From the NCBI GenBank assembly GCA_963700155.1, contig OY969472.1:936690-1000689 (forward strand): DNA of 64,000 bases, given 5' to 3'. The stretch is from an uncultured bacterium (lineage in GTDB: Bacteria; Patescibacteriota; Dojkabacteria; J137). Shown here piece by piece: positions 12,690 to 44,682 of the stretch. A program made the translations under genes and the position numbers. Numbering within the stretch: position 1 is the stretch's first letter; each line of letters begins with the position of its first letter. Below the pieces are notes generated by a model. The model searched no databases. It worked only from the letters and a program-made list of their open reading frames with translations, and was not told where the DNA came from.

Positions 12690-12809
12690 ATGGCCTCCCA
12701 GACCAGCGGCTACACCCTTTCGGGCTGCCCTATAAGAGTTTCCCCTTATAGACGTACAGAACGATGCTGACTGGAAAGCCATTCAAACGTTCTGTACGAT
12801 TTTTATTTT
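12690..12809 (+). ncRNA. Candidate structured small RNA or leader. GC-rich segment ending in an intrinsic-terminator-like hairpin (12754..12763 / 12788..12797) plus a T-tract.
   Basis: Local GC about 50% against a 30% background. Stems ctataag/cttatag and gtacagaacg/cgttctgtac are followed by gatttttatttt. No coding ORF on the + strand here. Confidence 0.2.
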
Positions 12810-12945
12810 GATACCATGCCTATATTTGCATATCGGTTTAGGTCTCAGATATTGAATTATAATATAAAGGTGAAATTAACAAAAGTTTTTGGACGATATT
12901 AATAAAGAAGAAGTATAATTCTTAAAATTAAATATAAGCATTAAT

Positions 12946-25944: not shown

Positions 25945-27444
25945 ATGTATAACAATTCATACTTCTTATATTGTCGAAAATCTAGTGAGGATAGTAGACA
26001 GGCTTTATCAATACCTGCTCAACTTAGAGAACTCAAAGAATTTGCAGTTAAAAATGATTTAAGAATCATTAAAACCTTTCAAGAAGAGAAATCAGCACGA
26101 ATACCTAACAAAAGAAAAGAATTTAATGAAATGCTTTATCAAATTAAACAAGGCAAGGCAACTAAAATTTTGTGTTGGCATACAAATAGGCTAAGTAGAA
26201 ACCCTCAGGAATCTGGTGTACTTCAGCAAATGATAACTGATGAAACTATTGAGGAGATAAGAACTCCATTTGAAACAATCACCAAAGACACAAATGATGT
26301 TATGCTCGGTGTGTCTTTCGGTGGCAATTCACAATACTCAAAAGAGTTAAGTTACAACACTAAACGTGGAATGAGAGAAAAAGCCTATCGTGGTGAATGG
26401 TTAACTGGTGCTCCACCCTTTTATATTAACTTTGGAGATAAAAAAGGTTCAAAGAATATAAAACCAGATCCAGAGACTTCAAAATTTTATCTCCCATGGA
26501 TTCGTAGAATTATAAAAGAACGTTTAACCACTCGAGAAGCAACAAGGGTACTTAGGGAACTTGGTGTTCGTGCAAAATCAAATAAATTCTACTCAAGCTC
26601 AATGGTGCAAAGATTATTAAGGAATCCAATGTATTATGGTCTTCTACAATATGGAGATATAGAGAAGATTGGAACTTGGGAACCATTAATTGATAAATGT
26701 ACTTGGGACGATCTTCAAATGGTATTAGACAATAGGACAAAACCATATTTCACAAAGCATAATCATGCATATAGTAAATTAATAAAATGTAGTGATTGTG
26801 GTGGCTTTTTGATCGGTGTTACTAAAACTAAGAAGAGCGGGAAATCTTATACTTATTATTCGGTTAATAAATCAAATCATCCTGAATGTAAATGTCTGCC
26901 AATCAAAGAAATGGATCTTGATGAACTTTTTTGTAATGACATTGAAAAGCTTGAGATGTCAGAAAGTCAGGCTGAAACTATTCGTGAATATACAATCAAA
27001 AGATTAGAAGGAGATAAAACAAGTAATTCATTTGTAAAAATACAATATGACAAAGAAATTGCCGAAGTAAATGAAAATTTAGATGGATTATTAAAATTAA
27101 GACTGGCTGAGGAAATAACAAAAGAAGATTACAAATTAAATAAATCTAAGAATGAAATGAGGCTCTCTGAGCTTGAAGAACTTATCAGAGATTTAAACTT
27201 AAATCGGAGTGAGTTCAGAAATGAGGTGGAACTAATTCTAGAAGATTGTCTGATCGTTAAAAAAGTATTTGAACATGGTAATAATGAAGAAAAACGAAGA
27301 ATTGTACTTCAAATTACACAAGATATTTCATTTGATGGAAATTCGATTCGGTGGAACTTCAAAAAGCCTTATCAGACAATGGTAAAATTCAAAAATGAAC
27401 CTAAAAGTGAAAACTGGGGTGGTCGGTGGGGCTCGAACATTTAG
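25945..27444 (+). CDS. Large serine recombinase (second copy). The last 8 codons are encoded by a tRNA-His-derived 3' fragment.
   Basis: LYCRKSSEDSRQ...IPAQ, HTNRLSRN. The 3' end overlaps tRNA-like sequence ggtggtcggtggggctcgaac. Confidence 0.8.
   Translation: MYNNSYFLYCRKSSEDSRQALSIPAQLRELKEFAVKNDLRIIKTFQEEKSARIPNKRKEFNEMLYQIKQGKATKILCWHTNRLSRNPQESGVLQQMITDETIEEIRTPFETITKDTNDVMLGVSFGGNSQYSKELSYNTKRGMREKAYRGEWLTGAPPFYINFGDKKGSKNIKPDPETSKFYLPWIRRIIKERLTTREATRVLRELGVRAKSNKFYSSSMVQRLLRNPMYYGLLQYGDIEKIGTWEPLIDKCTWDDLQMVLDNRTKPYFTKHNHAYSKLIKCSDCGGFLIGVTKTKKSGKSYTYYSVNKSNHPECKCLPIKEMDLDELFCNDIEKLEMSESQAETIREYTIKRLEGDKTSNSFVKIQYDKEIAEVNENLDGLLKLRLAEEITKEDYKLNKSKNEMRLSELEELIRDLNLNRSEFRNEVELILEDCLIVKKVFEHGNNEEKRRIVLQITQDISFDGNSIRWNFKKPYQTMVKFKNEPKSENWGGRWGSNI
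27417..27438 (-). pseudogene. 3' fragment of a tRNA-His paralog: T-loop TTCGAGC, T-stem CCCAC, acceptor 3' strand CGACCAC, discriminator C, CC.
   Basis: The acceptor 3' strand is exactly complementary to the 5' fragment at 27573..27623. It lies within the recombinase C-terminus. Confidence 0.5.
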
Positions 27445-27462: not shown

Positions 27463-27538
27463 GGGGTGGACAGTGGGGCTCGAACCCACGACAACTCGCT
27501 CCACAGGCGAGCGCTCTACCAACTGAGCTATGTCCACC
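27463..27538 (-). tRNA. tRNA-His (anticodon GTG) with a genomically encoded G-1 and no encoded CCA.
   Basis: Manual fold: G-1, acceptor GTGGACA/TGTCCAC, D arm GCTC-AGTTGGTA-GAGC, anticodon loop CTGTGGA, T arm GTGGG-TTCGAGC-CCCAC, discriminator C. Confidence 0.85.
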
Positions 27539-29940: not shown

Positions 29941-31266
29941 TTGAATATGAAAATTAGAAAAGATTACCTATTGTACTCGATAATAATAGCTTCTTTGCTT
30001 TTAGTTTTTATTCCTTCAACTAATTTTGTTCTTCAAGGAGGATTTACTTTACAAGATTCATTTTGGATTATCGGGTCAGTCACAGGATTGTTCGCGTTTG
30101 TATTATTCTTTTGGGAGTATGTTTTAAGTATAAGATCTGTTGTAAGTTATTTTACACAAGATGTTATCTCAGTCATAAATCTTCATAGATGGATTGGAAT
30201 TAATTCATTATTATTTATACTACTTCACCCTATAACTTTAATTTTAGATTCGATAATTAATCGAAATGAACTTTTAATAAAGATTATTCCTGTAAGTAAT
30301 TATGATGTTCAAGTTATTTATGGAGAAATAGTTTTTATTTTATTTTTTGTTATTTGGATTTCCAGCTATTTATCAAGAAAAAATCTTTCATTTAGATTTT
30401 GGAAGTTAGTGCATTATCTGACATATATTGTACTTCCCTTAACATTTATTCATGCTAATCAAATTGGTACTTTACTACAAAGTTCTTTTATAAGAGATTA
30501 CATAATATTCATGATGATTGTGTTTGTTCTTATTGTGATTTGGAGAGCTCTAGAATTTATTGGAGTTATGAGTGCTAAGTATACTATTAAATCTATCGAA
30601 TACGTAGGAAAAGATGTTATTCAGCTTGGCTTATCACCAATTGGAGATTATATAGAACCAAACAAAGGACAGTTTATCGATTTAAAACTTAGAAGATTTG
30701 GTGAAATTCATCCTTTCAGTGTTTTTTATTTTGACGAAGAGTCCAAAGATATATATCTAGCTATAAAAAAGGCTGGATCATTCACCTCAAGACTTGATAA
30801 TATGAAAATAGGTGATAGAGTTTTTGTTAAAGGTCCATATGGAATATTTACAAGAGAAGCTTATTTTCCTACTTCAAGAAAAGTTGTTTTGATTGCAGGG
30901 GGAATTGGAATAACTCCTTTTATAAGATTTATTGATCATATTAAAAAACATTACAGCAAATTTGATGAAGTTTATTTATTTTATGGGACAAAAACATTAG
31001 AAGAAATTTCATTTAGAAAGTATTTGGAATCACTTTCTCTTCCAAATTTAGAAGTAGTATTTTGTATGAGCAGAGAAAACGTAAAGTCTCCTTATGAAAA
31101 TGGGAGAATAAATATAAAGTTGATTAAGAAATATTTAAAGAATCAGTTATATAGATATCAGTATTTCATTTGTGGACCGCAACCGATGATGGATAGTGTA
31201 AACGCCGAACTCCTCTTTAATGGTGTAGACAATGATAATATCTACAAAGAGGAGTTCGGCTGGTAA
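29941..31266 (+). CDS. Ferric-reductase/NOX-like flavocytochrome (heme-binding TM domain plus FAD and NAD(P)H domains).
   Basis: Paired His in TM helices (HRWIGINSLLFILLH, HYLTYIVLPLTFIH). FAD motif HPFSV, GPYG, NAD motif IAGGIGITP. Confidence 0.65.
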   Translation: MNMKIRKDYLLYSIIIASLLLVFIPSTNFVLQGGFTLQDSFWIIGSVTGLFAFVLFFWEYVLSIRSVVSYFTQDVISVINLHRWIGINSLLFILLHPITLILDSIINRNELLIKIIPVSNYDVQVIYGEIVFILFFVIWISSYLSRKNLSFRFWKLVHYLTYIVLPLTFIHANQIGTLLQSSFIRDYIIFMMIVFVLIVIWRALEFIGVMSAKYTIKSIEYVGKDVIQLGLSPIGDYIEPNKGQFIDLKLRRFGEIHPFSVFYFDEESKDIYLAIKKAGSFTSRLDNMKIGDRVFVKGPYGIFTREAYFPTSRKVVLIAGGIGITPFIRFIDHIKKHYSKFDEVYLFYGTKTLEEISFRKYLESLSLPNLEVVFCMSRENVKSPYENGRINIKLIKKYLKNQLYRYQYFICGPQPMMDSVNAELLFNGVDNDNIYKEEFGW

Positions 31267-31278
31267 GTTTTTAAGAAT

Positions 31279-32184
31279 TTAATCTTCTTTATGCTCCTGA
31301 TCTTGTTCCTTTTGCTGTTCCTGCTCTTGAGTTTTCTTCTTTTCTTCTTGTTGTTGTTCAAGCTGCTGTTTCTGTTGCTCTTGTTGCTGTTCTAGTTGCT
31401 GCTTTTGTTGTTCCTGTTGCAATTCCAGTTGCTGTTTCTCAGATTCAGATAGATTATTCTGTTCTGCAGCATTTTTCTGTTGCTCCTGTTGTTGCTCTAA
31501 TTGTTGTTTTTGCTGCTCTTGTTCTAGTTCAAGATTTCTTTTTTGAATTTGAAGAACATGTTCTTGTGCCTTGTTTTCAAGGCTTAGTGCCTCACTTTCT
31601 AATTCTGAATCATTGTTTTCTTGTGCTCTTGTTCTAATTTGATTTGCAGTATTACCAACATAGTTTATTAAATCTTCACTCTCTTGTTCTAAATGAGGAT
31701 CACAGTTTGTACAATCCTGTAGTCTTGTTGTTAATCTATCTTGTTGTTCAGAAACTTCTTTTACACCAAGTGTTAAATTTGAACTATTATTTTGTTGAAG
31801 GTAATCTAATTCTGAAAGACGTTCTCTCATTACCTCATTTTCATAGCTTACTAATTGAATAGGATCATTAATATTGCTTCTTTCAATACTCTCAATTGAT
31901 TTGTCTAATCCAAATAAAGGATCACCTGCATTGGAATTCTTTGCTGCTTGAACTGTTATTGCTCCTAAACTACTTAGTATCACTAGTGCTGATATAATGG
32001 ATGCTAAAACTAATTTACCTTTCATAAAAATCTGACTTAAAAAATTAAATTGCTTTGGATTTTCATCCATAGCGTTCATCTTAGAAATTATTTGATTGCG
32101 AGTATTATTAACCCAGTGCGCATCTGGAGTAACATTGATACCCGTTAAGATGTCTTTTAGTTGTTTTTCATTAATTTGTTTCAT
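31279..32184 (-). CDS. Anti-sigma-factor-like membrane protein with a Gln/Glu-rich repeat tail. Cytoplasmic N-terminal domain, TM, extracytoplasmic domain.
   Basis: Overlaps the 3' end of the ECF sigma gene by 14 nt on the same strand. Topology is typical of anti-sigma factors. QQEQQKQQLEQQQ repeats at 31300..31540. Confidence 0.45.
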   Translation of the reverse strand: MKQINEKQLKDILTGINVTPDAHWVNNTRNQIISKMNAMDENPKQFNFLSQIFMKGKLVLASIISALVILSSLGAITVQAAKNSNAGDPLFGLDKSIESIERSNINDPIQLVSYENEVMRERLSELDYLQQNNSSNLTLGVKEVSEQQDRLTTRLQDCTNCDPHLEQESEDLINYVGNTANQIRTRAQENNDSELESEALSLENKAQEHVLQIQKRNLELEQEQQKQQLEQQQEQQKNAAEQNNLSESEKQQLELQQEQQKQQLEQQQEQQKQQLEQQQEEKKKTQEQEQQKEQDQEHKED

Positions 32185-32665
32185 TTACTAATTTTTTTAA
32201 TTTATTTAAAGTTCGATGAATAAATACTCTTACTGCTATGTAATTTTTTTGAATTATATTCGCAATTTCTTTATCAGAAAATTCATAAACATATTTATAT
32301 ATAATAATTTCTTTTTCTTTTTCTTTTAATAATTCCATTTTCATTAAAATGAATTCAGTTAATTCTTTATTTTCTGGTTCTATCCCAATCTCTTCAATTT
32401 GATCAATATTATAAATTCTTTGTTTATTAATCCTGTAAAAATCAATAATCTGATTATGGGCAATTCTAAAGAGCCATGTTTTTATACTTGCTTTTTTATT
32501 ATCAAAATCTTTAAATTTCTTTAGTGCTTTATAAAAAACTTCTTGCGTTAAGTCTTCTGCTGTTTCCTTTACAAAACCGGTTCTTAAATATATGTATTTG
32601 TAAATCAACGCGTTATGTTTATTGAACACATCCAGAAAATTCAAATCTTCATTTTTTGGATTCAT
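32171..32665 (-). CDS. ECF-type sigma-70 family RNA polymerase sigma factor.
   Basis: Region 2 DLTQEVFYKALKKF..WLFRIAHNQIIDFYR. Region 4 HTH SDKEIANIIQKNYIAVRVFIHRTLNKLKK. Confidence 0.7.
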   Translation of the reverse strand: MNPKNEDLNFLDVFNKHNALIYKYIYLRTGFVKETAEDLTQEVFYKALKKFKDFDNKKASIKTWLFRIAHNQIIDFYRINKQRIYNIDQIEEIGIEPENKELTEFILMKMELLKEKEKEIIIYKYVYEFSDKEIANIIQKNYIAVRVFIHRTLNKLKKLVNETN

Positions 32666-34333: not shown

Positions 34334-34774
34334 ATGAATACATTAATTTATTTTATTTTTATTATTATTGCGGCTTTATTTTTAGCTCTTGCCGAAATTC
34401 AGATTGAAGGTGAATTTGGTTGGGCAAAAAAACTACCAACATGGAGAAAAAAAATTGCGTTTGGACCAATAAAATTTGAATTGACTGGATATCATCTTTT
34501 CTTTTTTAGCTTTATTATTTTTATTCTTCATTTTAGATTCGCTTTTCAGGTATGGACATTAAAAGATGAATTATATACTTTGGCAGCCTATCTTTTTATT
34601 GTGATTTTGGAGGACTTTTTCTGGTTTGTATTCAATCCGCACTATGGGTTAAAGAAATATAATAAAAAATATGTTTATTGGTTTAAAAGCTGGTTTTTAG
34701 GATTTCCCTCATTTTATTTTATGGTTCTTCCAATTGGGATTATTCTTTTGCTTGTAGCACAAGGCATTTCGTAA
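34334..34774 (+). CDS. Small polytopic membrane protein, paralog of 46502..46963.
   Basis: Shared motif EIQIEG(E/K)FGWA(K/A)KLPTWR. Confidence 0.45.
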   Translation: MNTLIYFIFIIIAALFLALAEIQIEGEFGWAKKLPTWRKKIAFGPIKFELTGYHLFFFSFIIFILHFRFAFQVWTLKDELYTLAAYLFIVILEDFFWFVFNPHYGLKKYNKKYVYWFKSWFLGFPSFYFMVLPIGIILLLVAQGIS

Positions 34775-34783
34775 TGCTATAAT

Positions 34784-35104
34784 TTGTCGTTGCTAAATGG
34801 AGGCGAAATAATGTTCTTTAAATCGTTGTTTGCAGGAGTGGGAAATTTCCTGCACGAGCTGTTAGACCTCCTTGATACTCCTGTAGAGGAGTTAGAGGAT
34901 ATGCATGTGTCTTTGGGTCAGTTTGTTCCAGAGATACATACAGATATCAACGGAAAGGAGCTTCCGCTTGGGGTAACCCGAGGGATGCTCATCGATGGCA
35001 TTTGGAACGGTCATGGTCATGACTGTCCATGTCACGATTGCTTTATCAAATATCGTTTTGAAGGTAATTGGCTCGTCGGTGTTAAGGATCATCGCTCCCT
35101 ATAG
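34784..35104 (+). CDS. Hypothetical ORF inside high-GC islet 1.
   Basis: About 45-50% GC against a 30% background. Ends ...GHGHDCPCHDCF... Coding status is uncertain. Confidence 0.25.
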   Translation: MSLLNGGEIMFFKSLFAGVGNFLHELLDLLDTPVEELEDMHVSLGQFVPEIHTDINGKELPLGVTRGMLIDGIWNGHGHDCPCHDCFIKYRFEGNWLVGVKDHRSL

Positions 35105-35143
35105 CATTGCGGGGCGCTCCATCTGTTAAGATCTATTATTTAG

Positions 35144-35174
35144 TCTTTGCAGAAAAACGGAGGCCCTGCAAAGA
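35144..35174. terminator. Hairpin tctttgcag-N13-ctgcaaaga, 4 nt beyond the 3' end of the minus-strand P-type ATPase gene.
   Basis: 9-bp perfect stem. No clear U-tract. Confidence 0.3.
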
Positions 35175-35178
35175 CCAT

Positions 35179-37524
35179 TTACTCTCTATAAAACTTTATC
35201 TTCGCAACCTCCCCAATCTGCATCCAGAAGAATGACCAAACCCAAACAAATATTATTAAATCTATGTTTATTCGTCCCGGCATTAAAAAGCCTGTGAATG
35301 CTAATAAAGAAGCGAATAACTGAGTCCCTAATGTAGCAAATATAACAATTTTACTTGGAAGATATTTGTACCATCTTTCTTTGGTTCTCGCGATGTAAAT
35401 TAATAAATGTCCAGAAACTGTTAATTTTAAAAAGAACATTGTCTGAACAATCGCCCAATCTAAATTGAAGAGATATTTTGCAAGAATAAATAGTCCCATG
35501 CTATTTACTACTCCAACTAATCCCCATATTGAACTCATTGCAAATCTTTTTTTTAAATGTAAATGAGAAGGCTTATTTACAGCCCTTACTCTGTCAAACG
35601 CAAGCGAAATTATCGGGATGTCATTTAATAATGCTAATAGAATGATTTGTAAAGGTGTCAAAGGATAATCTCCTACAAGAATTCCTAACAATAAAATTGT
35701 AAGAATAAGTCTAAAACTTTCTGAAATTCTATATTGTGCGTAGGCAGAAAGTCTTGCAAAGATCTTTCTGCTTTCAATAATTGCATCTTTAATAACTGCT
35801 ATTCCATCTGATAACAAGACAATATCAGCAGCTGACTTTAAAGAACTGACAGCTGAGGCGACGGCGATTCCAACGTTTGAAGCGAGAATCGCAGGAATAT
35901 CATTTACGCCGTCGCCATTTGCAGAAACTACATAATATTGCTCAGCATTTTTTACTAATTTATATTTATCATCTGGAAGGACCTCAGCGAACGCTGAGGT
36001 CCCTTCATAATCTTTTTTTTCTAACTTCATATTTTCTTCCAGTTCACTTTTCTTTAAAACATTACCTTCCATTCCAAGTTGTCTTGAAATTTCCTTTGCA
36101 ATCAATACGTTATCTCCTGTTACCATAACTGTTTTAATTTGATTTTCACCTAAAAATTTCAATACGTCTGCAGCATCTTCTCTCAAAGTATCTGAGAGCG
36201 CCATTACACCTGCCATCTTAAGTTCACTTTCATCTTTTACATTTTCACCAATAGCTACTGCAAGCGCTCTGTATCCTTTTTCTGCAAATTCTTCTACATC
36301 CTTATCAAAATTAGTTTTTTCATAACTTTCCTTTTTAATTAAATTTTTAATAATTTGTGGTGCACCGATAGCTACTGTGATTTGATATTTATCAGCTTTA
36401 ATTATTAATGAACTATGTTTTCTTTCAGAATCTGCTGGAATAAAATTCACCACCTCTGCTTTGAGTTCTTTTAAAGCACTACTTCGAAAATTATGAATAA
36501 TGGCTCTATTAATTGGATTATCAGCATCTTTAGAAGCAGAGATAAATGATAATTGTAAAATATCTATATTACTAAAGTCATTATAAGTTTTAAGATCATA
36601 GATGTTTATCTCGTTTTTAGTTAATGTACCGGTTTTATCTGTTAGTAATAAATCTACATTAGATAATTCCTCTAAAGCTGATAATCTTCTTACAATAACT
36701 TTTTTCTTATATAAATTAATTGCTCCAAACTCAATTATTAAAGTCATAACAGTCGTTAAGCTAATAGGAATCCCAGCAATTACGATACTTAAATCTAGTG
36801 TTAGAAGTTCAACAAGCGGTTTTTCTTTAATTAAAAAATATAAATTGAGTAATACAACAGAAACAAGGCTAATAATTGTTAAATACTTTGCAATATTTAA
36901 AATATCTTTTTCTAAAATACTTTTTTTTGTAATTTCATTAACTTTTTTTACAGATTGAGCGAGATAAGTATTTAATCCAGTTTCTGTAACTTTGATTGTA
37001 CATTGTCCTGTAGTCAAAAATGAACCCGAGAATAATTTATCATCAACTTTTTTATCTACAGGTAAAGATTCACCTGTTAAAGTTGATTCGTTAATACTAA
37101 GATTTGATTCTTTTAATACCTTCGCATCTGCGGGAACAACGTCACCTATATTTAATTCAACGATATCATCAGGAACTAATTCTTTAGAATCAATTTTATC
37201 CCATTTCCCATCTCTTATGACTTCCACATAACTAATAATTTCTTTGTTTAATTCTTTGACTGCATTATCCGCCTTATTTTCCTGCCATAAGGTTATGGCA
37301 ATATTAAGCATCATTAAAATTATGATAAAAGTGAAGTCAAAAATTTTATTTGAATATAGAGATAATAAAGCTGCTGCTAAAAGCATTAAGGTTATTGGAG
37401 AAACGATTTGTTTAACTATTTTACGTATAAATTTATTATTTTTTTCAGGAATCTCATTTAAACCGAACTTTTTCTTTCGTTCTATAACTTCCTGCTGCTT
37501 TAATCCAGTTTCTTGAATATCCAT
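35179..37524 (-). CDS. Cation-transporting P-type ATPase (P2/P3-type).
   Basis: DKTGTLT phosphorylation motif. TGDN, GDGVNDIPAIL hinge, 8-10 TM segments. Confidence 0.85.
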   Translation of the reverse strand: MDIQETGLKQQEVIERKKKFGLNEIPEKNNKFIRKIVKQIVSPITLMLLAAALLSLYSNKIFDFTFIIILMMLNIAITLWQENKADNAVKELNKEIISYVEVIRDGKWDKIDSKELVPDDIVELNIGDVVPADAKVLKESNLSINESTLTGESLPVDKKVDDKLFSGSFLTTGQCTIKVTETGLNTYLAQSVKKVNEITKKSILEKDILNIAKYLTIISLVSVVLLNLYFLIKEKPLVELLTLDLSIVIAGIPISLTTVMTLIIEFGAINLYKKKVIVRRLSALEELSNVDLLLTDKTGTLTKNEINIYDLKTYNDFSNIDILQLSFISASKDADNPINRAIIHNFRSSALKELKAEVVNFIPADSERKHSSLIIKADKYQITVAIGAPQIIKNLIKKESYEKTNFDKDVEEFAEKGYRALAVAIGENVKDESELKMAGVMALSDTLREDAADVLKFLGENQIKTVMVTGDNVLIAKEISRQLGMEGNVLKKSELEENMKLEKKDYEGTSAFAEVLPDDKYKLVKNAEQYYVVSANGDGVNDIPAILASNVGIAVASAVSSLKSAADIVLLSDGIAVIKDAIIESRKIFARLSAYAQYRISESFRLILTILLLGILVGDYPLTPLQIILLALLNDIPIISLAFDRVRAVNKPSHLHLKKRFAMSSIWGLVGVVNSMGLFILAKYLFNLDWAIVQTMFFLKLTVSGHLLIYIARTKERWYKYLPSKIVIFATLGTQLFASLLAFTGFLMPGRINIDLIIFVWVWSFFWMQIGEVAKIKFYRE

Positions 37525-37630
37525 AAAGTTTTTTTAAGTTATGATTTATTCTAAATTTAATTGATTAATCTTTCAAGCTAGGAGTTTTTGTTATGTTATT
37601 ATTTAATTAAATAACTGTTATTAAAATACT

Positions 37631-38188
37631 ATGGATAATTTCGATAATGGATTAATTAAAAATCAGTTTATAGATAAGTTATATTATTCGATTTTTATGA
37701 AGATAGGACAAAGTAAGGGAGATACTAATATTGTATTAGCATTAGAAGAATTAGCAAATCTTGATGCTGAAAATAGGGTATCTACTGAAGAACTTCCTTC
37801 TTTACTAACTGCATTTAATGAAGTAAATTTATGGTTCTTATTTAATGGTGATGTTCTTTCTAACGAAGAAAAAATATTTCTAGAAAATTTGCTAGATAGA
37901 GTTGATAAAAAGATTCCGTATGTATATTCATCAGTAATTAACAAAATAGGGGAAAATTATGAAAATAGAGAGATTTCAAGATCATTTAGAGTTTTGTTGT
38001 ATTTAAGTTCAAGGTCTGATCTTATTGGTATTGAGCCAATTGATTTAGTTGAAGCATTTAGAAATTTTGATTATTGGTTTACTCTTAATAGCTATTTATT
38101 TAATAGAGATGAAATAAAGTCTATAAATGAATTGATAGAGGCTATACATCGCAAAATTCCTAGGAATGGTAATGGTCATTTGAATTAA
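37631..38188 (+). CDS. Hypothetical protein.
   Basis: ORF only. Confidence 0.4.
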   Translation: MDNFDNGLIKNQFIDKLYYSIFMKIGQSKGDTNIVLALEELANLDAENRVSTEELPSLLTAFNEVNLWFLFNGDVLSNEEKIFLENLLDRVDKKIPYVYSSVINKIGENYENREISRSFRVLLYLSSRSDLIGIEPIDLVEAFRNFDYWFTLNSYLFNRDEIKSINELIEAIHRKIPRNGNGHLN

Positions 38189-38212
38189 AGTTTGGAAGTT
38201 TTTGTTGTCGAG

Positions 38213-38238
38213 GGGCGGACCTTTCGGTCCGCCCTTTC
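38213..38238 (+). terminator. GC-rich perfect hairpin gggcggacc-tttc-ggtccgccc followed by TTTC, at the left edge of high-GC islet 2.
   Basis: Seen directly. Could terminate the 37631..38188 gene or be an element end. Confidence 0.4.
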
Positions 38239-38254
38239 AACAACTGGAAATGAA

Positions 38255-39214
38255 CTACTGCGCGAGCGGGTCGCTGACTTCGGCACAGACGCCTGGCTGC
38301 ACAACTTCGAAGAAGCGCAGCTCATTGAGCTGATTGCCGACCACCCGATAGGTCCCCTGGTAGGGGTATTCACTCGGGTTGGCGAACAACGCGATTTCGT
38401 AAACCGAGTGCTGATCATCGCCTTTGAACGTCTGGCTAACCCATCCGTCCCAGGGTGCCCATTCGGAGCCTTCCAGAACCTGCGGGTACATCGGTGGATT
38501 GATAGGCTCGACGACGTCTAGCATACACACGAATCCGCCACTCGGTGTCATACCGAGGCTGAACGGAACGACCGGCTCTTCAGGTTCGCCGGGCTGCGGT
38601 AATCCAAAAGTGAAAACGTAGCAGCCGAAAGTCATGCTTTCGATCACGCCGTCTCCGTGGACACCTGAACCCAACGAATATCCCACCGCGATAACTTGTG
38701 CGTTCGGGAACGCAACTGCCCATTCGGGCAGCGTTCCGAACCAGTTGCTACCGTTGCCGCCGCCGGTGTGCGGGGCGCCGGACTTGACGAATGCGGCGGC
38801 GCTGTTGGAGAGCCACCAATTATCGCCGTAAACTGCCTCCCCGACGAGAATCCCGTCGGGAGTGCCGTTGTTGTCGAAGTCCACTACGAGCTGTAAGCCC
38901 GGGGTGATGCCGAACGAGGCGACGTAGTCAATGTTGCCGGACGTGATGTTTGACAGCAGGACCGCGAACGGATAGTAGCCGGCTGCTTTATCGAGCGACG
39001 TGTTCGACTCGGTCCAGATATGCAAGCCATCGGCTTGCAGCTCGTTGTGACCTTGAGCACGTGTTTCGCTCAGATCCCAGTTTCCAAGGTTCGTCGTGTG
39101 GATGTTTCCACATGCCTGGACCTGGTTCGGCGAGGCGGCTAAAGGTGCGAACGTGGCGAATGCCAGAACGAAAACAATAGCCAGCGCGATCAATGTGAAA
39201 ACTTTCTTACTCAT
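38255..39214 (-). CDS. Secreted protein (signal peptide) encoded in a 55-60% GC islet, likely horizontally acquired.
   Basis: Long ORF with a signal peptide MSKKVFTLIALAIVFVLAFATFA. GC and codon usage contrast strongly with the flanks. Overlapping +-strand ORFs are artefacts of high GC. Confidence 0.5.
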   Translation of the reverse strand: MSKKVFTLIALAIVFVLAFATFAPLAASPNQVQACGNIHTTNLGNWDLSETRAQGHNELQADGLHIWTESNTSLDKAAGYYPFAVLLSNITSGNIDYVASFGITPGLQLVVDFDNNGTPDGILVGEAVYGDNWWLSNSAAAFVKSGAPHTGGGNGSNWFGTLPEWAVAFPNAQVIAVGYSLGSGVHGDGVIESMTFGCYVFTFGLPQPGEPEEPVVPFSLGMTPSGGFVCMLDVVEPINPPMYPQVLEGSEWAPWDGWVSQTFKGDDQHSVYEIALFANPSEYPYQGTYRVVGNQLNELRFFEVVQPGVCAEVSDPLAQ

Positions 39215-39267
39215 GGTTCTGTTACTCCTATAGAATATGAATTTGAATTCGAAATTTGCCGTTGCTA

Positions 39268-39327
39268 GATGCTTCGGCGGTTCAAAAGACTAAATTTAAT
39301 TTTAATCTCCAAAACCGCCGAAGCATC
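39268..39327. repeat. 15-bp perfect inverted repeat gatgcttcggcggtt / aaccgccgaagcatc with a 30-nt loop, at the right edge of high-GC islet 2.
   Basis: Seen directly. Followed by tttattgtagtttta. Confidence 0.45.
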
Positions 39328-39531
39328 TTTATTGTAGTTTTAATTTCCAGTTGTTAAAGAACATGTTCAGGGAATTTAATCCACTGATTATATTTATATT
39401 AATTCAGAAACAAATGTTATCTGTACTATATAAATTCAGATGGATTATATAACAAATATATACAAAAATCAAGAGTTGCTAAATATATAAAAGTCGCTAA
39501 CAAATCAAGATGGAAGAGTGTTTAATAGAAA

Positions 39532-39603
39532 TATGCCAGAGAGGATTCGAACCTCTGACCTGCCGCTTAGAAGGCGGCTGCTCTATCCACTGAGCTACTG
39601 GCA
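39532..39603 (-). tRNA. tRNA-Arg (anticodon TCT).
   Basis: Manual fold: acceptor GTGCCAG/CTGGCAT (G1-U72), D arm GCTC-AGTGGATA-GAGC, anticodon loop CTTCTAA, T arm AGAGG-TTCGAAT-CCTCT. Confidence 0.8.
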
Positions 39604-39670
39604 CACATTAACAGCAGGCATATTTTAACATTTAATTAAAAAATACTGAATACTTAAGAAGATGAATTAA

Positions 39671-41317: not shown

Positions 41318-41677
41318 GTGAAAAAGATGCTACGGCTAGTCGTTTTGTTCGTGTTCTGTCTATTGGGCGCTGGAAGTTTTACACTCTATAGTATCGTATT
41401 CGGGCAGGTCGGTTCACCAAGGATTAGTACGGATTATATTGTGTCCTTGGTGTTAAATCCACTGTTTCTTTTTGCATTGGGACTTTCCCTTTTCGGAGCT
41501 GTATTGCGTATGTTCATATTCAAGGAGTTCGGAATTTCGCGTTCAGCTGTATTATCCGAACTGACGTTTTTGTTTACTCTCAGCGGTGGTCTTCTTGTAT
41601 CACATGAGAAAGTTGATCTTAAGCTTGTTGTCGGTGCTTTACTAATGTTCATGGCTTTATTCGTTCTGGAGAGTTGA
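41318..41677 (+). CDS. Small 4-TM membrane protein (GtrA/SMR-like size class) preceding a glycosyltransferase.
   Basis: ORF. Hydrophobic. GC higher than the genome background. Confidence 0.35.
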   Translation: MKKMLRLVVLFVFCLLGAGSFTLYSIVFGQVGSPRISTDYIVSLVLNPLFLFALGLSLFGAVLRMFIFKEFGISRSAVLSELTFLFTLSGGLLVSHEKVDLKLVVGALLMFMALFVLES

Positions 41678-41683
41678 TTAATC

Positions 41684-42838
41684 ATGATTAGACTGACACT
41701 AGTATCTAATCTAACTCCAACACTTCCAGTTAGCGAATATGGATTATATCTCGCGACTGCATTGAGTGAAGTGATGGATGTAATAGTTCTGACGGATAAA
41801 AATGCGCCAGAAATCGAACATGGATGTCTTGATCTTCATCGCATCTATAATTACGGATCTCACTTAACCCCTATTAGGTTAATGAGTGAGATAAAAAGAA
41901 GCCAACCAGACTGCGTGATGTACAATGTCACACTTGGAGCATTTGGAAGCTCTACGGCAAACTTTGCTTCAATGATGACTCTACCTGTATTGCGGATGTT
42001 GGGGGTTCCAACGATCGTTTTGCTTCATAATATGGTTGAGGAATTCAATGGCAATGTTGCAACAATTCTTAGACTCGGTGCACAGGCAGCAACTTGGATT
42101 ATAACTCGATCAGGGGAGGTTTGTGTTTTAAGGCAAGAGTATTCAGACTTGCTGCGGTCCAAATACCATGCGCAATATGTACACCTGGTTCCGCATGGGA
42201 TGTTAGGAAATCCAAAGGCAAAAAGTTTGCCAGGTACAAAGGAAATCCTATCATTCGGCATTTATGGAACGCATAAACGTCTGGAAAATCTCTTGGAAGC
42301 AATGACGATACTCTTGCCAATCGATCCTGTTATTAAGCTGAAGATTGTGGGTGGCTCTAACTCACACAATCCACGCTATTATCATGAAGTTCATGACAAG
42401 TATGGTCACCTTCCAAATGTTGACTGGTTTGGGTATGTCCCGGAAGATATGGTTCAGAAAGTATTCACCGAAAGTGAAGTTGTCATCCTAACAAATTGCA
42501 CTAATGGTGGAGAATCTGGTGTTCTGATTCAGGCAGGGATGTACGCAAGACCTGTAATTGCATCGGATATTCCTCTCTTTAGAAATAAAATGAGTGAGGG
42601 ATATAGGTTGAAACTGGTTGATATTTCTAATCCCTCATGTATTGCTGAGGCGATATTCTGCCTCTTGCATGATGAGGAGGAAAAGTTAGCTCAATCAGTT
42701 CAGAATTTTGAAGCATCAATTAAGTATAGTATGGGCGACGTTGCCAAAATCTACCTCGGAATAATCGAGCATCTCGTGGAGGAAAGGAATGCGAATAAAC
42801 AAACTGCTCCTAGCCATAGGAGTCGTAGTCTTTCTTAA
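41684..42838 (+). CDS. Glycosyltransferase, GT4-like (GT-B fold).
   Basis: C-terminal ESGVLIQAGMYARPVIASDIPLFRN matches the E..G...EA.a.G.PVIas motif of GT1/GT4 enzymes. Confidence 0.55.
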   Translation: MIRLTLVSNLTPTLPVSEYGLYLATALSEVMDVIVLTDKNAPEIEHGCLDLHRIYNYGSHLTPIRLMSEIKRSQPDCVMYNVTLGAFGSSTANFASMMTLPVLRMLGVPTIVLLHNMVEEFNGNVATILRLGAQAATWIITRSGEVCVLRQEYSDLLRSKYHAQYVHLVPHGMLGNPKAKSLPGTKEILSFGIYGTHKRLENLLEAMTILLPIDPVIKLKIVGGSNSHNPRYYHEVHDKYGHLPNVDWFGYVPEDMVQKVFTESEVVILTNCTNGGESGVLIQAGMYARPVIASDIPLFRNKMSEGYRLKLVDISNPSCIAEAIFCLLHDEEEKLAQSVQNFEASIKYSMGDVAKIYLGIIEHLVEERNANKQTAPSHRSRSLS

Positions 42839-44495
42839 CTTGGGACCACTTGTGAGTCCATTTACAACACTAAATTGGGATAGTGAGACGCATATGTTTT
42901 TTGCGGATCACTTTCAACGTTCATGGTTTAATCCATGGGAACCTAGGTGGTATGGAGGGTTCTATGTATATGCAAGTGCACCTTTAACATATCAGCTGGT
43001 AGCTATTGCTGGTATTGGTGATCTTGAACGTGGCTATCGTATAGTTCAGTTGGTCGCATTGGTGTTACTTCCTGCTTCTATTTACTTCTTCACCAAAGAA
43101 GTTTTCGGTAAGAAGTATGCAGGATGGGCTTCCTTGTTGGTTGTCGGGGTGTCGGGTACTTATGTTGTCCTATACACATTTGGACAATTACCGACTTTTG
43201 TTGCTTTTGTTCTCGCGATTATGGCTGCTGGAATGTATTCACGCTTCCTGAGAACAGGTAACTGGACAAATTTAATCGGGTGGTTTGCATTGGCCGGCGG
43301 GGCAGTTTCAAGCAACCATTATACAGTAATATTGTGTCTTCCACTGGTAGTTGTTGCAGTTACAATTTCCTACTGGTTGAGGACCGCATTTTCTATTCGA
43401 GCGTGGATTCTGAAACCGTTAGTTGCTTCGATTGTACTTTTAGGAGCAGTGGTTTTAGTCATTGCGCCATTCTGGTGGTGGTACTTCAGAATTAGCTTGC
43501 CTCAAACTACTATTCCTCATCCAACTCGGTCGCCATTCTTACAGAATCCCGATGATGCAGAAATGTATTTTTGGGATATGTATGGCGGAGCGTTACTCTT
43601 CATCCCTTTAGGTATTCTTGCTTTGAGGAAAGTCTGGAAAGCTTTCCCCCTGGTTCTAGTTGTTCTTTTCCTTGTATTGATGGGACTTGGTGGAAACACA
43701 GATATCCCTACAAAGATACTTGGCGGACTGGCTGATGTTTTCACCTTTGATAGGTTTTCATTCTGGGCAGCAATGCTCACATCAGTATTGGGAGCACTAT
43801 TTGTTGCTAATTTGAGTTTGGATTGGCGAAAGTATGTGCTCATAGCCCTTTCAGTAGTTTTACTCTTTGGAATTGGGAGTGCAATTCAATTTCCCAACAC
43901 TACAGAGTTACTGAAAAAACCATTGTTAGCATGGGAGGAAGATGAGGTTGTTAAATTCCTCGATGATCATACGGATTGGAACTATTTGACTTTAGGATTA
44001 GGAGAACCTGAAGTCGCAAAGCTTTCGCGGTTGACAAACGCAACATCTATTGATGGATTCTACAACCAGGCGCGATCTAACTACTGGTTGAGGATTTCCG
44101 GAGTCGGAACTTTAGATTCAACTCCTCTACTTCAACCATCAAGCCCAGGATTACTTGAAGGAATACTATCTCATCCACAGGACTGGAGTCTCCGATGGGT
44201 AATTTGTGATATACCCTGGGCCGAAGAATGGTTGCGTCAAGATGGATGGCAACTTCTTCATCCAATCGGATCCTCTATAGGTTGGAAATTGGGGGATGCC
44301 AATTACAGCGACATCACTGTGTGGGAAGCACCCATTGATGCTGTCGCCGAAATGACGAAAGCTACCCAAATACCACCAAAAATTGGAGATATCCCTCGAA
44401 TTGTTTTCCCAATCTGGTGGGGTGTTGTACCCTTATCTTCTTTAGTTGTCGGGCTCCTTACTTTGTTATATATCTTATACAGGAGGAGCGACTGA
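42789..44495 (+). CDS. Large polytopic membrane protein, possibly a GT-C-type glycosyltransferase or YfhO-like.
   Basis: 12 or more TM helices. Overlaps the GT4 gene by 50 nt. Confidence 0.35.
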   Translation: MRINKLLLAIGVVVFLNLGPLVSPFTTLNWDSETHMFFADHFQRSWFNPWEPRWYGGFYVYASAPLTYQLVAIAGIGDLERGYRIVQLVALVLLPASIYFFTKEVFGKKYAGWASLLVVGVSGTYVVLYTFGQLPTFVAFVLAIMAAGMYSRFLRTGNWTNLIGWFALAGGAVSSNHYTVILCLPLVVVAVTISYWLRTAFSIRAWILKPLVASIVLLGAVVLVIAPFWWWYFRISLPQTTIPHPTRSPFLQNPDDAEMYFWDMYGGALLFIPLGILALRKVWKAFPLVLVVLFLVLMGLGGNTDIPTKILGGLADVFTFDRFSFWAAMLTSVLGALFVANLSLDWRKYVLIALSVVLLFGIGSAIQFPNTTELLKKPLLAWEEDEVVKFLDDHTDWNYLTLGLGEPEVAKLSRLTNATSIDGFYNQARSNYWLRISGVGTLDSTPLLQPSSPGLLEGILSHPQDWSLRWVICDIPWAEEWLRQDGWQLLHPIGSSIGWKLGDANYSDITVWEAPIDAVAEMTKATQIPPKIGDIPRIVFPIWWGVVPLSSLVVGLLTLLYILYRRSD

Positions 44496-44550: not shown

Positions 44551-44610
44551 AGGTACTATTCTTCTATTACATTTATTTTTGAAAAATTGTGTTATAAGTT
44601 CTTAAAGATG

Positions 44611-44682
44611 TGAGCTGACCGGGACTCGAACCCGGAACCAACTGCTTAAAAGGCAGCTGCTCTACCATTGAGCTATCAGCCC
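44611..44682 (-). tRNA. tRNA-Lys (anticodon TTT).
   Basis: Same scaffold as tRNA-Lys(CTT), with anticodon loop CTTTTAA. Confidence 0.85.

Follow-up and report, generated by a model that had tools for sequence, protein, structure and literature searches.

Why does a gene with a GC content of 0.576 (57.6%) lie in a chromosome whose surrounding sequence is far poorer in GC? The question is raised by the second of two GC-rich islets in a 64,000-nt stretch of contig OY969472.1, hereafter the window. Our analysis indicated that islet 2 probably entered this low-GC chromosome, which is of Dojkabacteria type (CPR/Patescibacteria), by lateral transfer as a self-contained gene cassette. In what follows, loci from other assemblies are referred to by L numbers.

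Composition of islet 2 and its gene product

The GC content of islet 2, calculated in 200-nt windows over 38200-39199, was 0.545-0.635 compared with 0.324 for the whole window, and the GC3 of its 319-aa coding sequence (CDS, 38255-39214, minus strand) was 0.697. The GC3 of 45 other ORFs in the window had a mean of 0.22 (sd 0.039) and a maximum of 0.319, and G+C at four-fold sites was 0.69 in the islet 2 CDS against 0.17 in native genes. These values bear out the statement in a preliminary description that the GC content of islet 2 is far above that of its surroundings. The high-GC composition is kept by the coding part and the flanks are AT-rich. For the neighbouring P-type ATPase the best relatives were Patescibacteria, with at most 56% identity.

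The protein has the signal peptide that had been proposed for it, with a basic n-region, a hydrophobic helix (residues 3-21) and an AxA-like site, and it is predicted to be Sec-secreted and to fold into two β-sandwich domains (AF2, pLDDT 81.8). No relative was found in Pfam, NCBIfam, PHROG or PDB; homologs were obtained down to E 1e-113. The N-terminal domain matches proteins of the Microbacterium phages Megan (by fold) and Gina (by sequence) and is common in Actinobacteria; the actinobacterial-type contigs in which it occurs have 66-77% GC.

Layout of the cassette

Islet 2 was predicted to form a stand-alone transcription unit of ~1.3 kb, and the cassette occupies the entire gap from a tRNA-Arg to a 185-aa gene. 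The following features were assigned:

39531-39605, minus strand: tRNA-Arg(UCU), directly 5' of the cassette (ARAGORN and Rfam)
38202-39533 (approximate), minus strand: whole cassette, probably foreign, with promoter, leader, CDS and terminator (composition; architecture as in L082/L120, L083 and L084)
39444-39472, minus strand: putative σ70-like promoter (consensus scan, 10/12 matches)
39334-39358, minus strand: 5' arm of a long-range inverted repeat, UUUAACAACUGGAAAUUAAAACUAC (inverted-repeat search, duplex energy, MFE fold)
39268-39327, minus strand: conserved 5'-UTR hairpin (folding energy, covariation, covariance model)
39253-39272, minus strand: islet-2 copy of a 20-nt motif, sense GCATCTAGCAACGGCAAATT (cassette alignments)
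39225-39229, minus strand: Shine-Dalgarno AGGAG, 10 nt 5' of the ATG (read from sequence)
38255-39214, minus strand: CDS of the 319-aa secreted protein (ORF, homologs)
38236-38258, minus strand: 3' arm of the long-range inverted repeat, GUAGUUCAUUUCCAGUUGUUGAA, overlapping the stop codon (38255-38257)
38202-38245, minus strand: GC-rich terminator-type hairpin (folding energy; counterparts in other cassettes)

The limits of the cassette were inferred, since no significant direct repeat was found around it. The putative promoter consists of a -35 box TTGATT (39472-39467), a 17-nt spacer and a -10 box TATAAT (39449-39444), which would place the start of transcription at ~39437 and give a predicted, structured leader of ~220 nt. 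A TATAAT is likewise present ~200-240 nt 5' of the ATG in L082, L083 and L084, and the Shine-Dalgarno is kept as AGGAG or GGAGG in the cassette alignment. The tRNA-Arg had been overlooked in the preliminary description; its 3' end is overlapped by TATTTCTATTAA (39533-39522), which bears a weak resemblance to the direct repeat flanking the L082 insert.

Insertion of related cassettes

In L123, from a species related to those of L082 and L120, a tRNA-Lys is followed after ~105 nt by NAGPA and the cassette is absent, and at this same tRNA-Lys/NAGPA site L082 and L120 carry an insert between copies of ATTTCTTTA(AGT)ACC. The sister cassette, which belongs to a second Dojkabacteria genome, is an insertion of 1.24 kb flanked by short direct repeats of 9-16 nt, and the 9-mer flanking the L082 insert has just two occurrences in L082. 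In L084 imperfect direct repeats of ~40 nt stand on either side of the cassette (0/300 shuffles as high). Since no core sequence is shared by the direct repeats of L082, L083 and L084, they give no support to a single site-specific mechanism. For the window genome no close relative was found, and hence no empty site for its cassette, whose insertion we infer by analogy with the sister cassette. Comparison of L082 with L120 gave a dS of 0.13 for the cassette and 0.10-0.20 for its neighbours, a cassette dN/dS of 0.21, and a divergence of 2.1% in the leader and 5.0% in the CDS, which indicates that the cassette is functional and inherited once in place.

The HUH transposases that had been suggested as the agents of transfer were searched for in the window, and no HUH or IS200 transposase, TnpA and TnpB included, was found in the ORFs of at least 110 aa, all of which were scanned except two antisense ORFs within longer genes. 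Recombinase genes are located 12-24 kb from the cassette, one of the tyrosine type and two of the large serine type.

Relatives and origin

Full-length homologs were found in contigs of 58-65% GC, where the composition matches that of the gene; in L113, an Anaerolineae MAG, the flanks have a GC content of 0.65 and the gene 0.64, and L114, L118, L119 and L124 are alike. The homolog search that had been recommended for the 319-aa protein placed the family in Anaerolineae and further contigs of high GC, and its composition is native to GC-rich Chloroflexota and Actinobacteria. These compositionally matched homologs, together with the empty sister site, are in agreement with the earlier suggestion that islet 2 came from a GC-richer lineage. 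None of the copies at the five high-GC loci carries the leader, and no leader-bearing GC-rich donor was found among these loci.

The leader-bearing copies stand out as islets of high GC in contigs of low or intermediate GC. The gene/flank GC of such cassettes was 0.60/0.35 in L082, 0.53/0.31 in L084, 0.59/0.37 in L085 and 0.59/0.45 in L083, and the best named RarA matches of L120 were Candidatus Dojkabacteria. Mutual amino acid identity among the leader-bearing copies was 45-61%, no closer than to the high-GC copies. Four-fold sites were near-randomised between copies (observed identity 0.28-0.44, expected 0.24-0.32), and four-fold G+C of the leader-bearing copies stays at ~0.47-0.74. Should these copies have diverged within genomes of low GC, a simple model of recent transfer plus amelioration fails to explain their composition.

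The gene might be a long-standing resident of low-GC CPR genomes; its GC content would in that case be upheld either by a GC-biased process of local reach or by selection, acting for instance on the stability of the mRNA or towards slow translation. This we consider unlikely, although it would account for several observations: the leader-bearing copies stand apart from the high-GC copies in the tree, they have the leader (lacking at all five high-GC loci), the inverted repeat and the terminator in common, their synonymous sites are saturated and yet have ~0.65-0.7 G+C against 0.17 in native genes, and the 5' hairpin, end-pairing and strong terminator fit a stable-mRNA design. Long residence is difficult to reconcile with the patchy distribution of the cassette, which is missing from the syntenic site in L123 and occurs in differing genomic contexts, and the other ~1.1-Mb genomes seen gave no match among the best 120 homologs. 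The L084 copy moreover looks partly ameliorated (GC3 0.53, T being the commonest four-fold base). As for the proposed selection, S/W states at four-fold sites were uncorrelated in 14/15 copy pairs, so there is no site-specific constraint, and the CDS shows no unusual degree of structure (z -0.5 to -2.2).

Hairpins and predicted end-pairing of the mRNA

Three hairpins had been reported at the edges of the islets, and all three are real by folding energy. The 5'-UTR hairpin (-40.6 kcal/mol, z -10.2) is built of a 15-bp outer stem, a 2x2 internal loop and a 7-bp inner helix with G·U pairs. In its alignment 93% of cells are paired and seven pairs have both sides changed (0/500 shuffles match), and an invariant G·U can be formed on the sense strand only. 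A covariance model (R1) scored 88 bits on the sense strand versus 40 on the antisense strand and matched solely cassette leaders in the 876 kb searched; no Rfam family reached the gathering score. The terminator-type hairpin has a core at 38213-38234 (nine G-C pairs and a GAAA loop) and an extension to 38202-38245 formed by GUUGUUGA / UCGACAAC (-31.3 kcal/mol, z -7.2); a GC hairpin is present 10-35 nt 3' of the stop codon in L082, L083, L084 and L085. The terminator-type hairpin of the window may also serve the convergent 185-aa gene.

An inverted repeat that brackets the CDS had been overlooked in the preliminary description. Its segments 38236-38254 and 39340-39358 are complementary at 17/19 positions, extending to 22 predicted pairs, with a duplex energy of -31.0 kcal/mol compared with -10.9±2.9 for shuffles (0/500 as low). 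Across cassettes the 5'/3' duplexes reach -21 to -33 kcal/mol, against -11 to -13 for shuffles. When the entire transcript of 1190 nt was folded, the MFE structure paired 39334-39358 with 38236-38258, and the long-range helix was predicted in whole-transcript MFE folds at 4/4 loci (window, L082, L083 and L084). The GUUGUUGA / UCGACAAC extension is a rival of the 5' arm for pairing with the 3' arm. Given this conserved 18-22-bp complementarity, the mRNA is predicted to close on itself, with its 5' UTR paired with its own stop-codon region.

The same repeats could in principle be invertase sites of a phase-variable segment, in which inversion would turn leader and CDS around while the promoter and terminator outside them stay fixed. 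The repeats do bracket exactly leader and CDS, with promoter and terminator outside, their sequence varies by locus while being matched within the window, L083 and L084, as recombining repeats would be, and the recombinase genes mentioned above lie within 24 kb. We nevertheless regard inversion as quite improbable: the orientation to promoter and terminator was identical in 5/5 independent assemblies, Logan contigs pass both repeats unbroken, no recombinase gene adjoins them and the helix was predicted at all loci folded.

Islet 1 and the shared motif

The preliminary description had suggested that both islets may have come on hairpin-ended, IS200/IS605-like or other non-autonomous elements sharing a 20-nt end or target motif. 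Islet 1 has the following features:

34775-34800, plus strand: candidate promoter-like sequence with an extended -10, TGcTATAAT (34775-34783), which overlaps the motif copy at 34781-34800 (read from sequence)
34811-35104, plus strand: orphan ORF of 97 aa with Shine-Dalgarno GGAGG at 34799-34803 (ORF, codon-position GC)
35143-35175, no strand assigned: 10-bp terminator-like hairpin between the convergent islet-1 ORF and P-type ATPase gene

The 55-60% GC claimed for islet 1 was an overstatement, as the peak in 200-nt windows was 0.465 and the ORF has a GC content of 0.45 and a GC3 of 0.46 (0.60/0.31/0.46 by codon position). The hairpin folds with -13.9 kcal/mol (z -3.5) on one strand and -17.4 kcal/mol (z -4.1) on the other, and a terminator-like site was predicted there on the minus strand. 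Plus-strand RNA folding of islet 1 gave z -5.3 and -7.0, compared with ~-1 in neighbouring windows; AF2 was uninformative for the ORF (pLDDT 47.7). Searches among 5.8e9 and 1.84e9 proteins returned the self-match only, and no similarity to the cassette was found past a ~20-30-nt patch containing the motif. The proposed link between the islets was therefore not upheld, and islet 1 stands apart as an orphan gene or RNA.

The motif match itself was confirmed: 34781-34800 and 39253-39272 agree at 18/20 positions and are the sole pair in the window within three mismatches, where 0.04 would be expected by chance. This match, the strong hairpins on either side of the islet 2 CDS and the lack of a recombinase in the cassette favour passenger elements of the kind proposed, which we nonetheless judge even less probable than inversion. 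The islet-2 motif copy lies inside the leader, where it comprises the last bases of the hairpin 3' arm followed by a conserved GGCAAA box; GGCAAA is invariant in 4/4 cassettes, whereas the TAGCAAC part is found in this window's cassette only, and the orientation of the motif relative to the gene is opposite in the two islets. Nor is islet 2 bounded by its hairpins: in homologous cassettes the conservation, and here the 5' repeat arm and promoter, run past the 5' hairpin. The right hairpin is a 5'-UTR structure with RNA-type covariation, the left one occupies the terminator place of every homologous cassette, and both are internal to a conserved transcription unit. The "bounding hairpins" are thus a predicted terminator and a conserved 5'-UTR stem-loop, not element ends. 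A covariance-model search of the window gave no further hairpin copies. Direct repeats surround the sister insert, and IS200/IS605 insertions are not known to make any.

Finally, the sharp composition step at the CDS boundaries could suggest an assembly chimera, in which GC-rich reads from a different organism became part of a low-GC contig. This has a negligible probability, and the preliminary description too had called it less likely. Logan contig L001, an independent assembly of run ERR11571143, agrees with the window (36115-39586) without mismatch over 3,472 bp and across both islet 2 junctions, so that islet 2 is not an assembly artefact. The GC-rich gene in low-GC surroundings was also found in five other samples, and cassette and flanks have co-diverged in L082/L120.

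Proposed route of acquisition

Under lateral acquisition, the cassette would have moved as a block, judging from the insertion of the sister cassette, from a high-GC source lineage into a tiny low-GC Dojkabacteria-type bacterium, bringing its own σ70-like promoter, structured leader, gene for a Sec-secreted protein and GC-rich terminator hairpin. Because the cassette encodes no recombinase, insertion would have relied on recombinases provided in trans or on illegitimate recombination. By analogy with 5'-3' UTR pairing of the icaR type, pairing of the mRNA ends might govern the stability, processing or translation of the transcript.

Comparison with known systems

With PATEs (IS200/IS605-derived) and MITE/MIC elements the cassette shares the lack of a transposase and the hairpins or inverted repeats near a gene. 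It differs in that these are internal to the unit, that the window has one copy and no Y1 transposase was found, and that the sister insert has direct repeats of 9-16 nt. Integron gene cassettes are similar as single-ORF mobile units with a long imperfect hairpin and a recombinase in trans, but here the hairpin is upstream of the ORF instead of downstream, there are no RYYYAAC/GTTRRRY cores, no array and no adjoining intI, and the unit has its own promoter.

Cis-mobilizable elements and integrase-less integrative cassettes have att-like flanking repeats and no recombinase of their own. The cassette resembles them in its flanking direct repeats, found at other loci, and the recombinase genes elsewhere in the genome, but the repeats of L082, L083 and L084 lack a common core, the unit is small (~1.3 kb) and no parent element whose att sites match was found.

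End-pairing occurs in hok mRNA. In the icaR mRNA of Staphylococcus aureus the 5' UTR base-pairs with the 3' UTR (PMC3868564). The predicted 18-22 bp duplex of the cassette would be long enough as an RNase III substrate, as in icaR-type pairing, and the cassette mRNA resembles both in its conserved, predicted complementarity between 5' UTR and 3' end. In the cassette, by contrast, the 5' arm is ~105 nt upstream of the Shine-Dalgarno, which is left uncovered, and the 3' arm of the modelled pairing overlaps the stop codon.

Phage-type "morons" and small acquired islets consist of one gene, equipped with a promoter and a terminator of its own, between conserved neighbours. The cassette is like them in this predicted layout, in its composition, which is sharply unlike that of the host, and in its variable presence among relatives. 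It is set apart by its location outside any recognisable prophage in a CPR bacterium, by direct repeats at two or more loci, and by a long, conserved, structured leader combined with 5'-3' complementarity.

A GC-rich cassette in an AT-rich genome

Islet 2 is probably a laterally acquired, moron-like cassette in a CPR genome, with an undescribed leader RNA and a predicted pairing of the mRNA ends. The following features were placed in and beside it.

39531-39605, tRNA-Arg
39472-39444 (-), promoter TTGATT-17-TATAAT predicted in silico (-35 at 39472-39467, -10 at 39449-39444)
39334-39358 (-), 5' arm of the predicted end-pairing
39340-39358 and 38236-38254, inverted repeat around the CDS
39268-39327 (-), 5' leader hairpin
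39225-39229 (-), Shine-Dalgarno sequence
38255-39214 (-), CDS of the 319-aa protein
38202-38245 (-), terminator-type hairpin

The inverted repeat and the tRNA-Arg had escaped the preliminary description, which was upheld in part: islet 2 was as described and islet 1 was weaker, with a peak of 0.465 GC. The window as a whole had 32.4% GC and islet 2 had 0.545-0.635 GC (200-nt windows, 38200 to 39199). The ORF of the 319-aa protein had a GC content of 0.576 and a GC3 of 0.697, compared with a GC3 of 0.22±0.039 (maximum 0.319) for 45 other ORFs in the window, and G+C at four-fold degenerate sites was 0.69 versus 0.17 in six large native genes. Codon usage and composition of this gene deviated strongly from those of the host genome, so the GC contrast and the signal-peptide protein with high-GC codon usage stood as reported. 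A chimeric assembly had been regarded as the less likely explanation, and it is made very unlikely by a contig from Logan (independent assemblies of sequencing runs) for run ERR11571143, which was identical to window 36115-39586 over 3,472 bp, crossed both junctions and encoded the exact 319-aa protein. The P-type ATPase between the islets was of native composition (GC3 0.21), and its best relatives, none above 56% identity, were from Patescibacteria. In the search for an empty counterpart of the window locus, loci of GTDB genomes anchored on the ATPase likewise reached at most 56% identity and had no synteny to the window, and the 90% clusters of the window proteins had no members besides the proteins themselves.

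The encoded protein

The 319-aa protein started with a Sec-type signal sequence and was modelled by AF2 as two β-sandwich domains (pLDDT 81.8). Family searches found no relative in Pfam, NCBIfam or PHROG, a Foldseek comparison with PDB gave generic Ig-like matches only (E > 0.02), and a profile search of PDB sequences returned nothing. Full-length homologs were 47-61% identical. The N-terminal domain was widespread among actinobacterial proteins, as Ig-like fusions or under LPXTG, PEP-CTERM or cutinase annotations, and was present in the Microbacterium phages Gina and Megan. The protein may have an extracellular binding or adhesion role.

The family alignment contained four invariant cysteines (C35, C198, C230 and C310) and, in nearly all full-length members, a conserved E-[VI]-S-D-P-L-A tail before the stop codon (residues 312-318 of the 319-aa protein), a tail that may represent a sorting or processing signal. 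An Anaerolineae MAG (JAEURB010000199; locus L113, 3192-7948) carried two tandem paralogs, with a P-type ATPase gene directly 5' of them. The window also has such an ATPase gene, at a distance of two genes from the cassette, in a different order and probably of a different ATPase class, and the shared neighbourhood is likely a coincidence. At the locus of the closest homolog (L117, 60% identity) two copies of one REP-like hairpin, GGGCGAAC...GTTCGCCC, were located about 75 nt apart 3' of the gene (955-1100); the GC content of this host appeared intermediate.

Distribution of homologs

Full-length homologs were compositionally at home in loci of 58-65% GC, among them the Anaerolineae MAG, which supports the suggested lateral acquisition from a GC-richer lineage for islet 2 only.

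Table. Composition and leader at loci carrying homologs
L113, L114, L118, L119, L124 (high-GC contigs, 0.58-0.65 GC): gene matches surroundings, GC3 0.71-0.88; leader absent
L082: gene GC 0.60, flank GC 0.35; high-GC islet; leader present
L083: gene GC 0.59, flank GC 0.45; high-GC islet; leader present
L084: gene GC 0.53, flank GC 0.31; high-GC islet; leader present
L085: gene GC 0.59, flank GC 0.37; high-GC islet; 5' end missing

A further locus, L120, was from a strain of L082 (about 96% identical), and both belong to Dojkabacteria; the best named matches of L120 (RarA) were to Candidatus Dojkabacteria (WS6). The non-coding flanks of the low-GC copies were conserved with the window cassette in the order TATAAT promoter element, ..GAAC.TTAACAAYTGRAA.. 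block, long hairpin, GGCAAA box, Shine-Dalgarno sequence and ATG, and the stop codon was followed by TTTCCAGYTGT and then a GC-rich hairpin. The GGCAAA box is the reverse complement of the core of a 20-nt motif shared by the edges of the two islets.

Leader RNA and putative terminator

All three hairpins reported at the islet edges were genuine and folded far better than shuffled sequences. In a four-sequence alignment of the 5' hairpin 93% of the cells were paired, with changes on both sides in seven pairs, and the observed values were reached by 0/500 shuffles; when the partner columns were slid, pairing fell to 36-52%. One invariant G·U pair could be formed by the sense-strand RNA only, and a covariance model of the hairpin scored 72-88 bits on the sense strand versus 26-40 bits on the antisense strand. 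Over 876 kb the cassette leaders were the sole matches to this model, and a search of Rfam 15 with the leader and islet 1 gave nothing at or above the gathering score, with sub-threshold matches to miRNA hairpins only.

The position of the predicted promoter places the 5' arm of the inverted repeat inside the transcript, and in silico the cassette had both a promoter and a terminator of its own. The GC hairpin 3' of the stop codon was positionally conserved in the window and in L082, L083, L084 and L085 and had a sequence of its own at every locus, which makes it terminator-like. Judged from sequence, the cassette hairpins are RNA features, one a 5' leader hairpin and the other a terminator-type hairpin.

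Predicted pairing of the mRNA ends

A 5' block was complementary to a post-stop block in every one of four loci.

Table. Energy of the duplex between the 5' and post-stop blocks
Window: -31.0 kcal/mol
L082: -22.3 kcal/mol
L083: -32.6 kcal/mol
L084: -20.9 kcal/mol

Shuffled controls gave -10.6 to -13.4 kcal/mol, and the observed energy was reached by 0-1 of 500 shuffles per locus. The block sequences varied between loci yet were matched within the window, L083 and L084. Minimum free energy folding of the whole predicted transcripts (1,157-1,247 nt) contained a long-range helix of 18-22 bp in 4/4 loci, which is predicted to close the CDS and covered the stop codon in 3/4 loci. In the window and L083 the 3' arm could alternatively extend the terminator stem, and in these models such alternative pairing would allow a structural switch.

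Insertion and inheritance

An empty-site polymorphism was seen for a sister cassette when L082 and L120 were compared with L123, a cassette-free locus of a related species (RarA 86% identical to that of L120). L123 had the gene order of L120 (RarA...142-aa ORF, tRNA-Lys(UUU), NAGPA, FolD, HtrA, RsmA, Bax1, Mfd), with only about 105 nt between tRNA-Lys and NAGPA, no cassette and no match to the covariance model; at this empty position L082 and L120 had a 1.24-kb insert. The insert was flanked by ATTTCTTTA(AGT)ACC (left ATTTCTTTAAGTACC, right ATTTCTT-TACC), which was single-copy at the empty site. A 9-mer of the flanking repeat occurred exactly twice in L082, and in the window its frequency was about one per 16 kb of strand. 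Between tRNA-Lys and the cassette, L120 (8930-9070) had about 100 extra nt compared with L082 26-60, which resemble a local duplication (..gacgat..ttgacgatttttt).

The L084 cassette was found between imperfect direct repeats of about 40 nt, the score of which was reached by 0/300 shuffles; the repeats flanking L083 were marginal (16/300 shuffles), and no significant direct repeat was found in the flanks of the window cassette. Given that the flanking repeats of the loci had no common core and no recombinase was encoded in the cassette, insertion may have occurred either through trans-acting recombinases or through illegitimate recombination. The cassette probably moves as a block of leader, CDS and terminator. 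The window had three recombinase genes at 15-27 kb, one for a tyrosine recombinase and two for large serine recombinases. A shared att site at a tRNA 3' end was rejected since the tRNA was upstream and co-oriented in the window and divergent, about 190-300 nt away, in L082/L120.

Between L082 and L120 the cassette had a dS of 0.13, compared with 0.10-0.20 for its neighbours, and a dN/dS of 0.21, and divergence was 2.1% in the leader and 5.0% in the CDS. By these substitution patterns the cassette is inherited and constrained after insertion.

Recent transfer or maintained GC content

A rough NJ tree separated the leader-bearing copies, which were 45-61% identical to each other, from the high-GC copies. 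Four-fold sites between them were effectively randomised (identity 0.28-0.44 observed, 0.24-0.32 expected), and S/W states at these sites were uncorrelated in 14/15 pairs; nevertheless, the four-fold sites had 0.47-0.74 G+C. The compositional puzzle is that synonymous divergence is saturated and the GC content unchanged. Recent transfer was ranked first: a GC-rich reservoir that bears the leader and is as yet unsampled would have been the place of divergence, and from it the copies would have entered low-GC genomes recently and independently. Such entry is favoured by the existence of an empty site, by a patchy distribution, by contexts that differ between copies and by the partial amelioration of the L084 copy.

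Alternatively, the GC content of the cassette CDS may be actively maintained within AT-rich genomes. The CDS was not unusually structured (folding z only -0.5 to -2.2), so that folding of the CDS RNA is not the cause of the high GC content, and a GC-rich CDS as an exceptionally structured RNA was rejected. We consider it unlikely that the cassettes form, all in one, an undescribed family of integrase-less mobile units in CPR (Dojkabacteria-type) and other low-GC genomes, with a new cis-acting leader RNA, 5'-3' mRNA closure and a CDS GC content that is kept by selection or a biased process and is not the fading trace of a transfer. If this were true, the cassette would exemplify a stable departure from compositional equilibrium, a rare situation for a bacterial gene. 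Should selection keep the GC content, this would have consequences for the pace of amelioration and for GC-based dating of transfers.

Islet 1 and the shared edge motif

Islet 1 differs in kind from islet 2, and its features were as follows.

34775-34783 (+), extended -10 element TGcTATAAT
34811-35104 (+), ORF of 97 aa with a good Shine-Dalgarno sequence, frame set by tblastn
34750-35140 (+), folded region

The GC content of the ORF by codon position was 0.60/0.31/0.46, and its three-base periodicity was clear (chi-square about 17, 2 degrees of freedom). No relative of the 97-aa protein was found among 5.8e9 or 1.84e9 proteins or in plasmids or phages, a 29-mer had no match in viral contigs, and a single-sequence AF2 model was uninformative. 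On the + strand a 350-nt segment gave z values of -5.3 and -7.0 against dinucleotide shuffles, compared with -3.9 on the - strand and about -1 in neighbouring windows; it contained a GUAA-looped hairpin, an end-joining helix and G·U pairs that can be formed on the + strand only. Islet 1 may be an orphan small protein, a structured RNA or both. A decayed copy of the cassette was rejected: comparisons with the family and with every locus by blastx, blastn and tblastn were empty, as was the search with the covariance model.

The match between the 20-nt edge motifs (AATTTGYCGTTGCTARATG) was real, with 18/20 positions identical in the sole such pair in the window (0.04 expected). The link between the islets consisted of this patch of about 20-30 nt alone (18/20 plus CGCC..CAT with a 2-nt gap), which was inverted relative to the islet-1 ORF and matched the window-specific, not the family-conserved, part of the leader. 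Chance is an unlikely source of this match, which may stem from a small duplication within the genome or be a scar left by recombination. The reading of the two motif copies as borders of a 4.5-kb composite island was rejected because the right copy is located within the conserved leader of the cassette; the ATPase and a 185-aa gene were native in composition. On the - strand (T/C)TAGCAAC was present at 39475-39482 (upstream of the cassette -35), 39258-39268 (leader) and 34789-34796 (edge of islet 1). Enrichment of TTAGCAAC as a site was not significant (5 copies versus 2.4 expected).

Other features of the window

A third block of raised GC content (41318-44495; 0.42 GC, GC3 0.37-0.42 versus 0.22) encoded a 119-aa membrane protein, a GT1/GT4 glycosyltransferase and a PMT_2-like membrane glycosyltransferase and adjoined a tRNA-Lys(UUU) at 44610-44682. 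This block is probably another acquired islet, either older or of mid-GC origin. A dense mobile and defence region (7012-27537) ended at a tRNA-His (27463-27537) and contained the following.

7012-10420, BpuJI-like restriction enzyme and two C5 DNA methylases
11328-12050, AbiV
12708-12844, LOOT RNA (Rfam, 53.8 bits)
15449-16555, tyrosine integrase
17902-19557 and 25945-27444, two large serine recombinases
24056-25692, primase-like zinc-ribbon protein and AAA_25 protein

A strong folding signal (z -4.6) was seen at 31000-31349 (-), at the convergent junction of a ferric-reductase-like gene and the gene of a 301-aa protein that has Q/E-rich repeats and is encoded beside an ECF-type sigma factor (32171-32665). 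A giant ORF of 1,672 aa (58448-63466) had a weak GDSL-lipase-like match as its sole Pfam hit, and is characteristic of the large surface proteins encoded by CPR genomes.

Significance

CPR bacteria, whose genomes are tiny, presumably live attached to other cells, and to our knowledge little is known of what they take up from other lineages and how. The cassette is probably a traceable acquisition, by a Dojkabacteria-type genome, of a gene for a surface or secreted protein such as occurs in Chloroflexota and Actinobacteria of high GC content and in their phages, and this clean acquisition makes the 319-aa protein a plausible host-interaction factor. With a conserved leader RNA that has no Rfam family and a predicted mRNA end-pairing, it is a complete expression module and offers a compact system for the study of post-transcriptional control in as yet uncultivable organisms. 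The GC islets of AT-rich genomes should be sorted into two classes, structured RNAs and foreign coding cassettes, and hairpins at islet flanks are more commonly terminators or leaders than transposon ends.

Comparison with known systems

The suggestion of a hairpin-ended passenger of the IS200/IS605 type was not supported, since the 5' hairpin was internal to the conserved unit and no HUH transposase was found in the scanned window ORFs: no Pfam match to Y1 (HUH) TnpA or to TnpB was obtained among the ORFs of at least 110 aa scanned, which comprised all but two antisense ORFs inside longer genes. Hairpins of IS200/IS605 elements are subterminal, whereas the conserved 5' arm and promoter of the cassette reached 30-200 nt past the 5' hairpin and the L082 insert started about 165 nt upstream of its own hairpin. 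These elements are also not known to make a target-site duplication, in contrast to the repeat flanking the L082/L120 insert.

An integron cassette has attC 3' of a promoterless ORF, whereas the long hairpin of islet 2 was 5' of the ORF and a promoter was present. In place of RYYYAAC ... GTTRRRY cores, the arms of the 5' hairpin began with GATGC and ended with GCATC, and the 3' hairpin (GTTGT...ACAAC) had the reverse order. Unlike an integron array with its adjacent integrase, the cassette was a single unit, and the only tyrosine recombinase was 23 kb away. An inverton, which would be present in a population in both orientations, is unlikely, as one orientation only was seen across five independent assemblies.

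The closest documented analogue is the pairing of the 5' and 3' UTRs of icaR (PMC3868564). The cassette differs from icaR in that its 5' arm leaves the Shine-Dalgarno sequence uncovered and is located about 105 nt upstream of it, and it resembles icaR and hok in having an mRNA with conserved complementarity between 5' UTR and 3' end (4/4 loci). By analogy with these systems, the end-pairing may act on stability, RNase III processing or translation.
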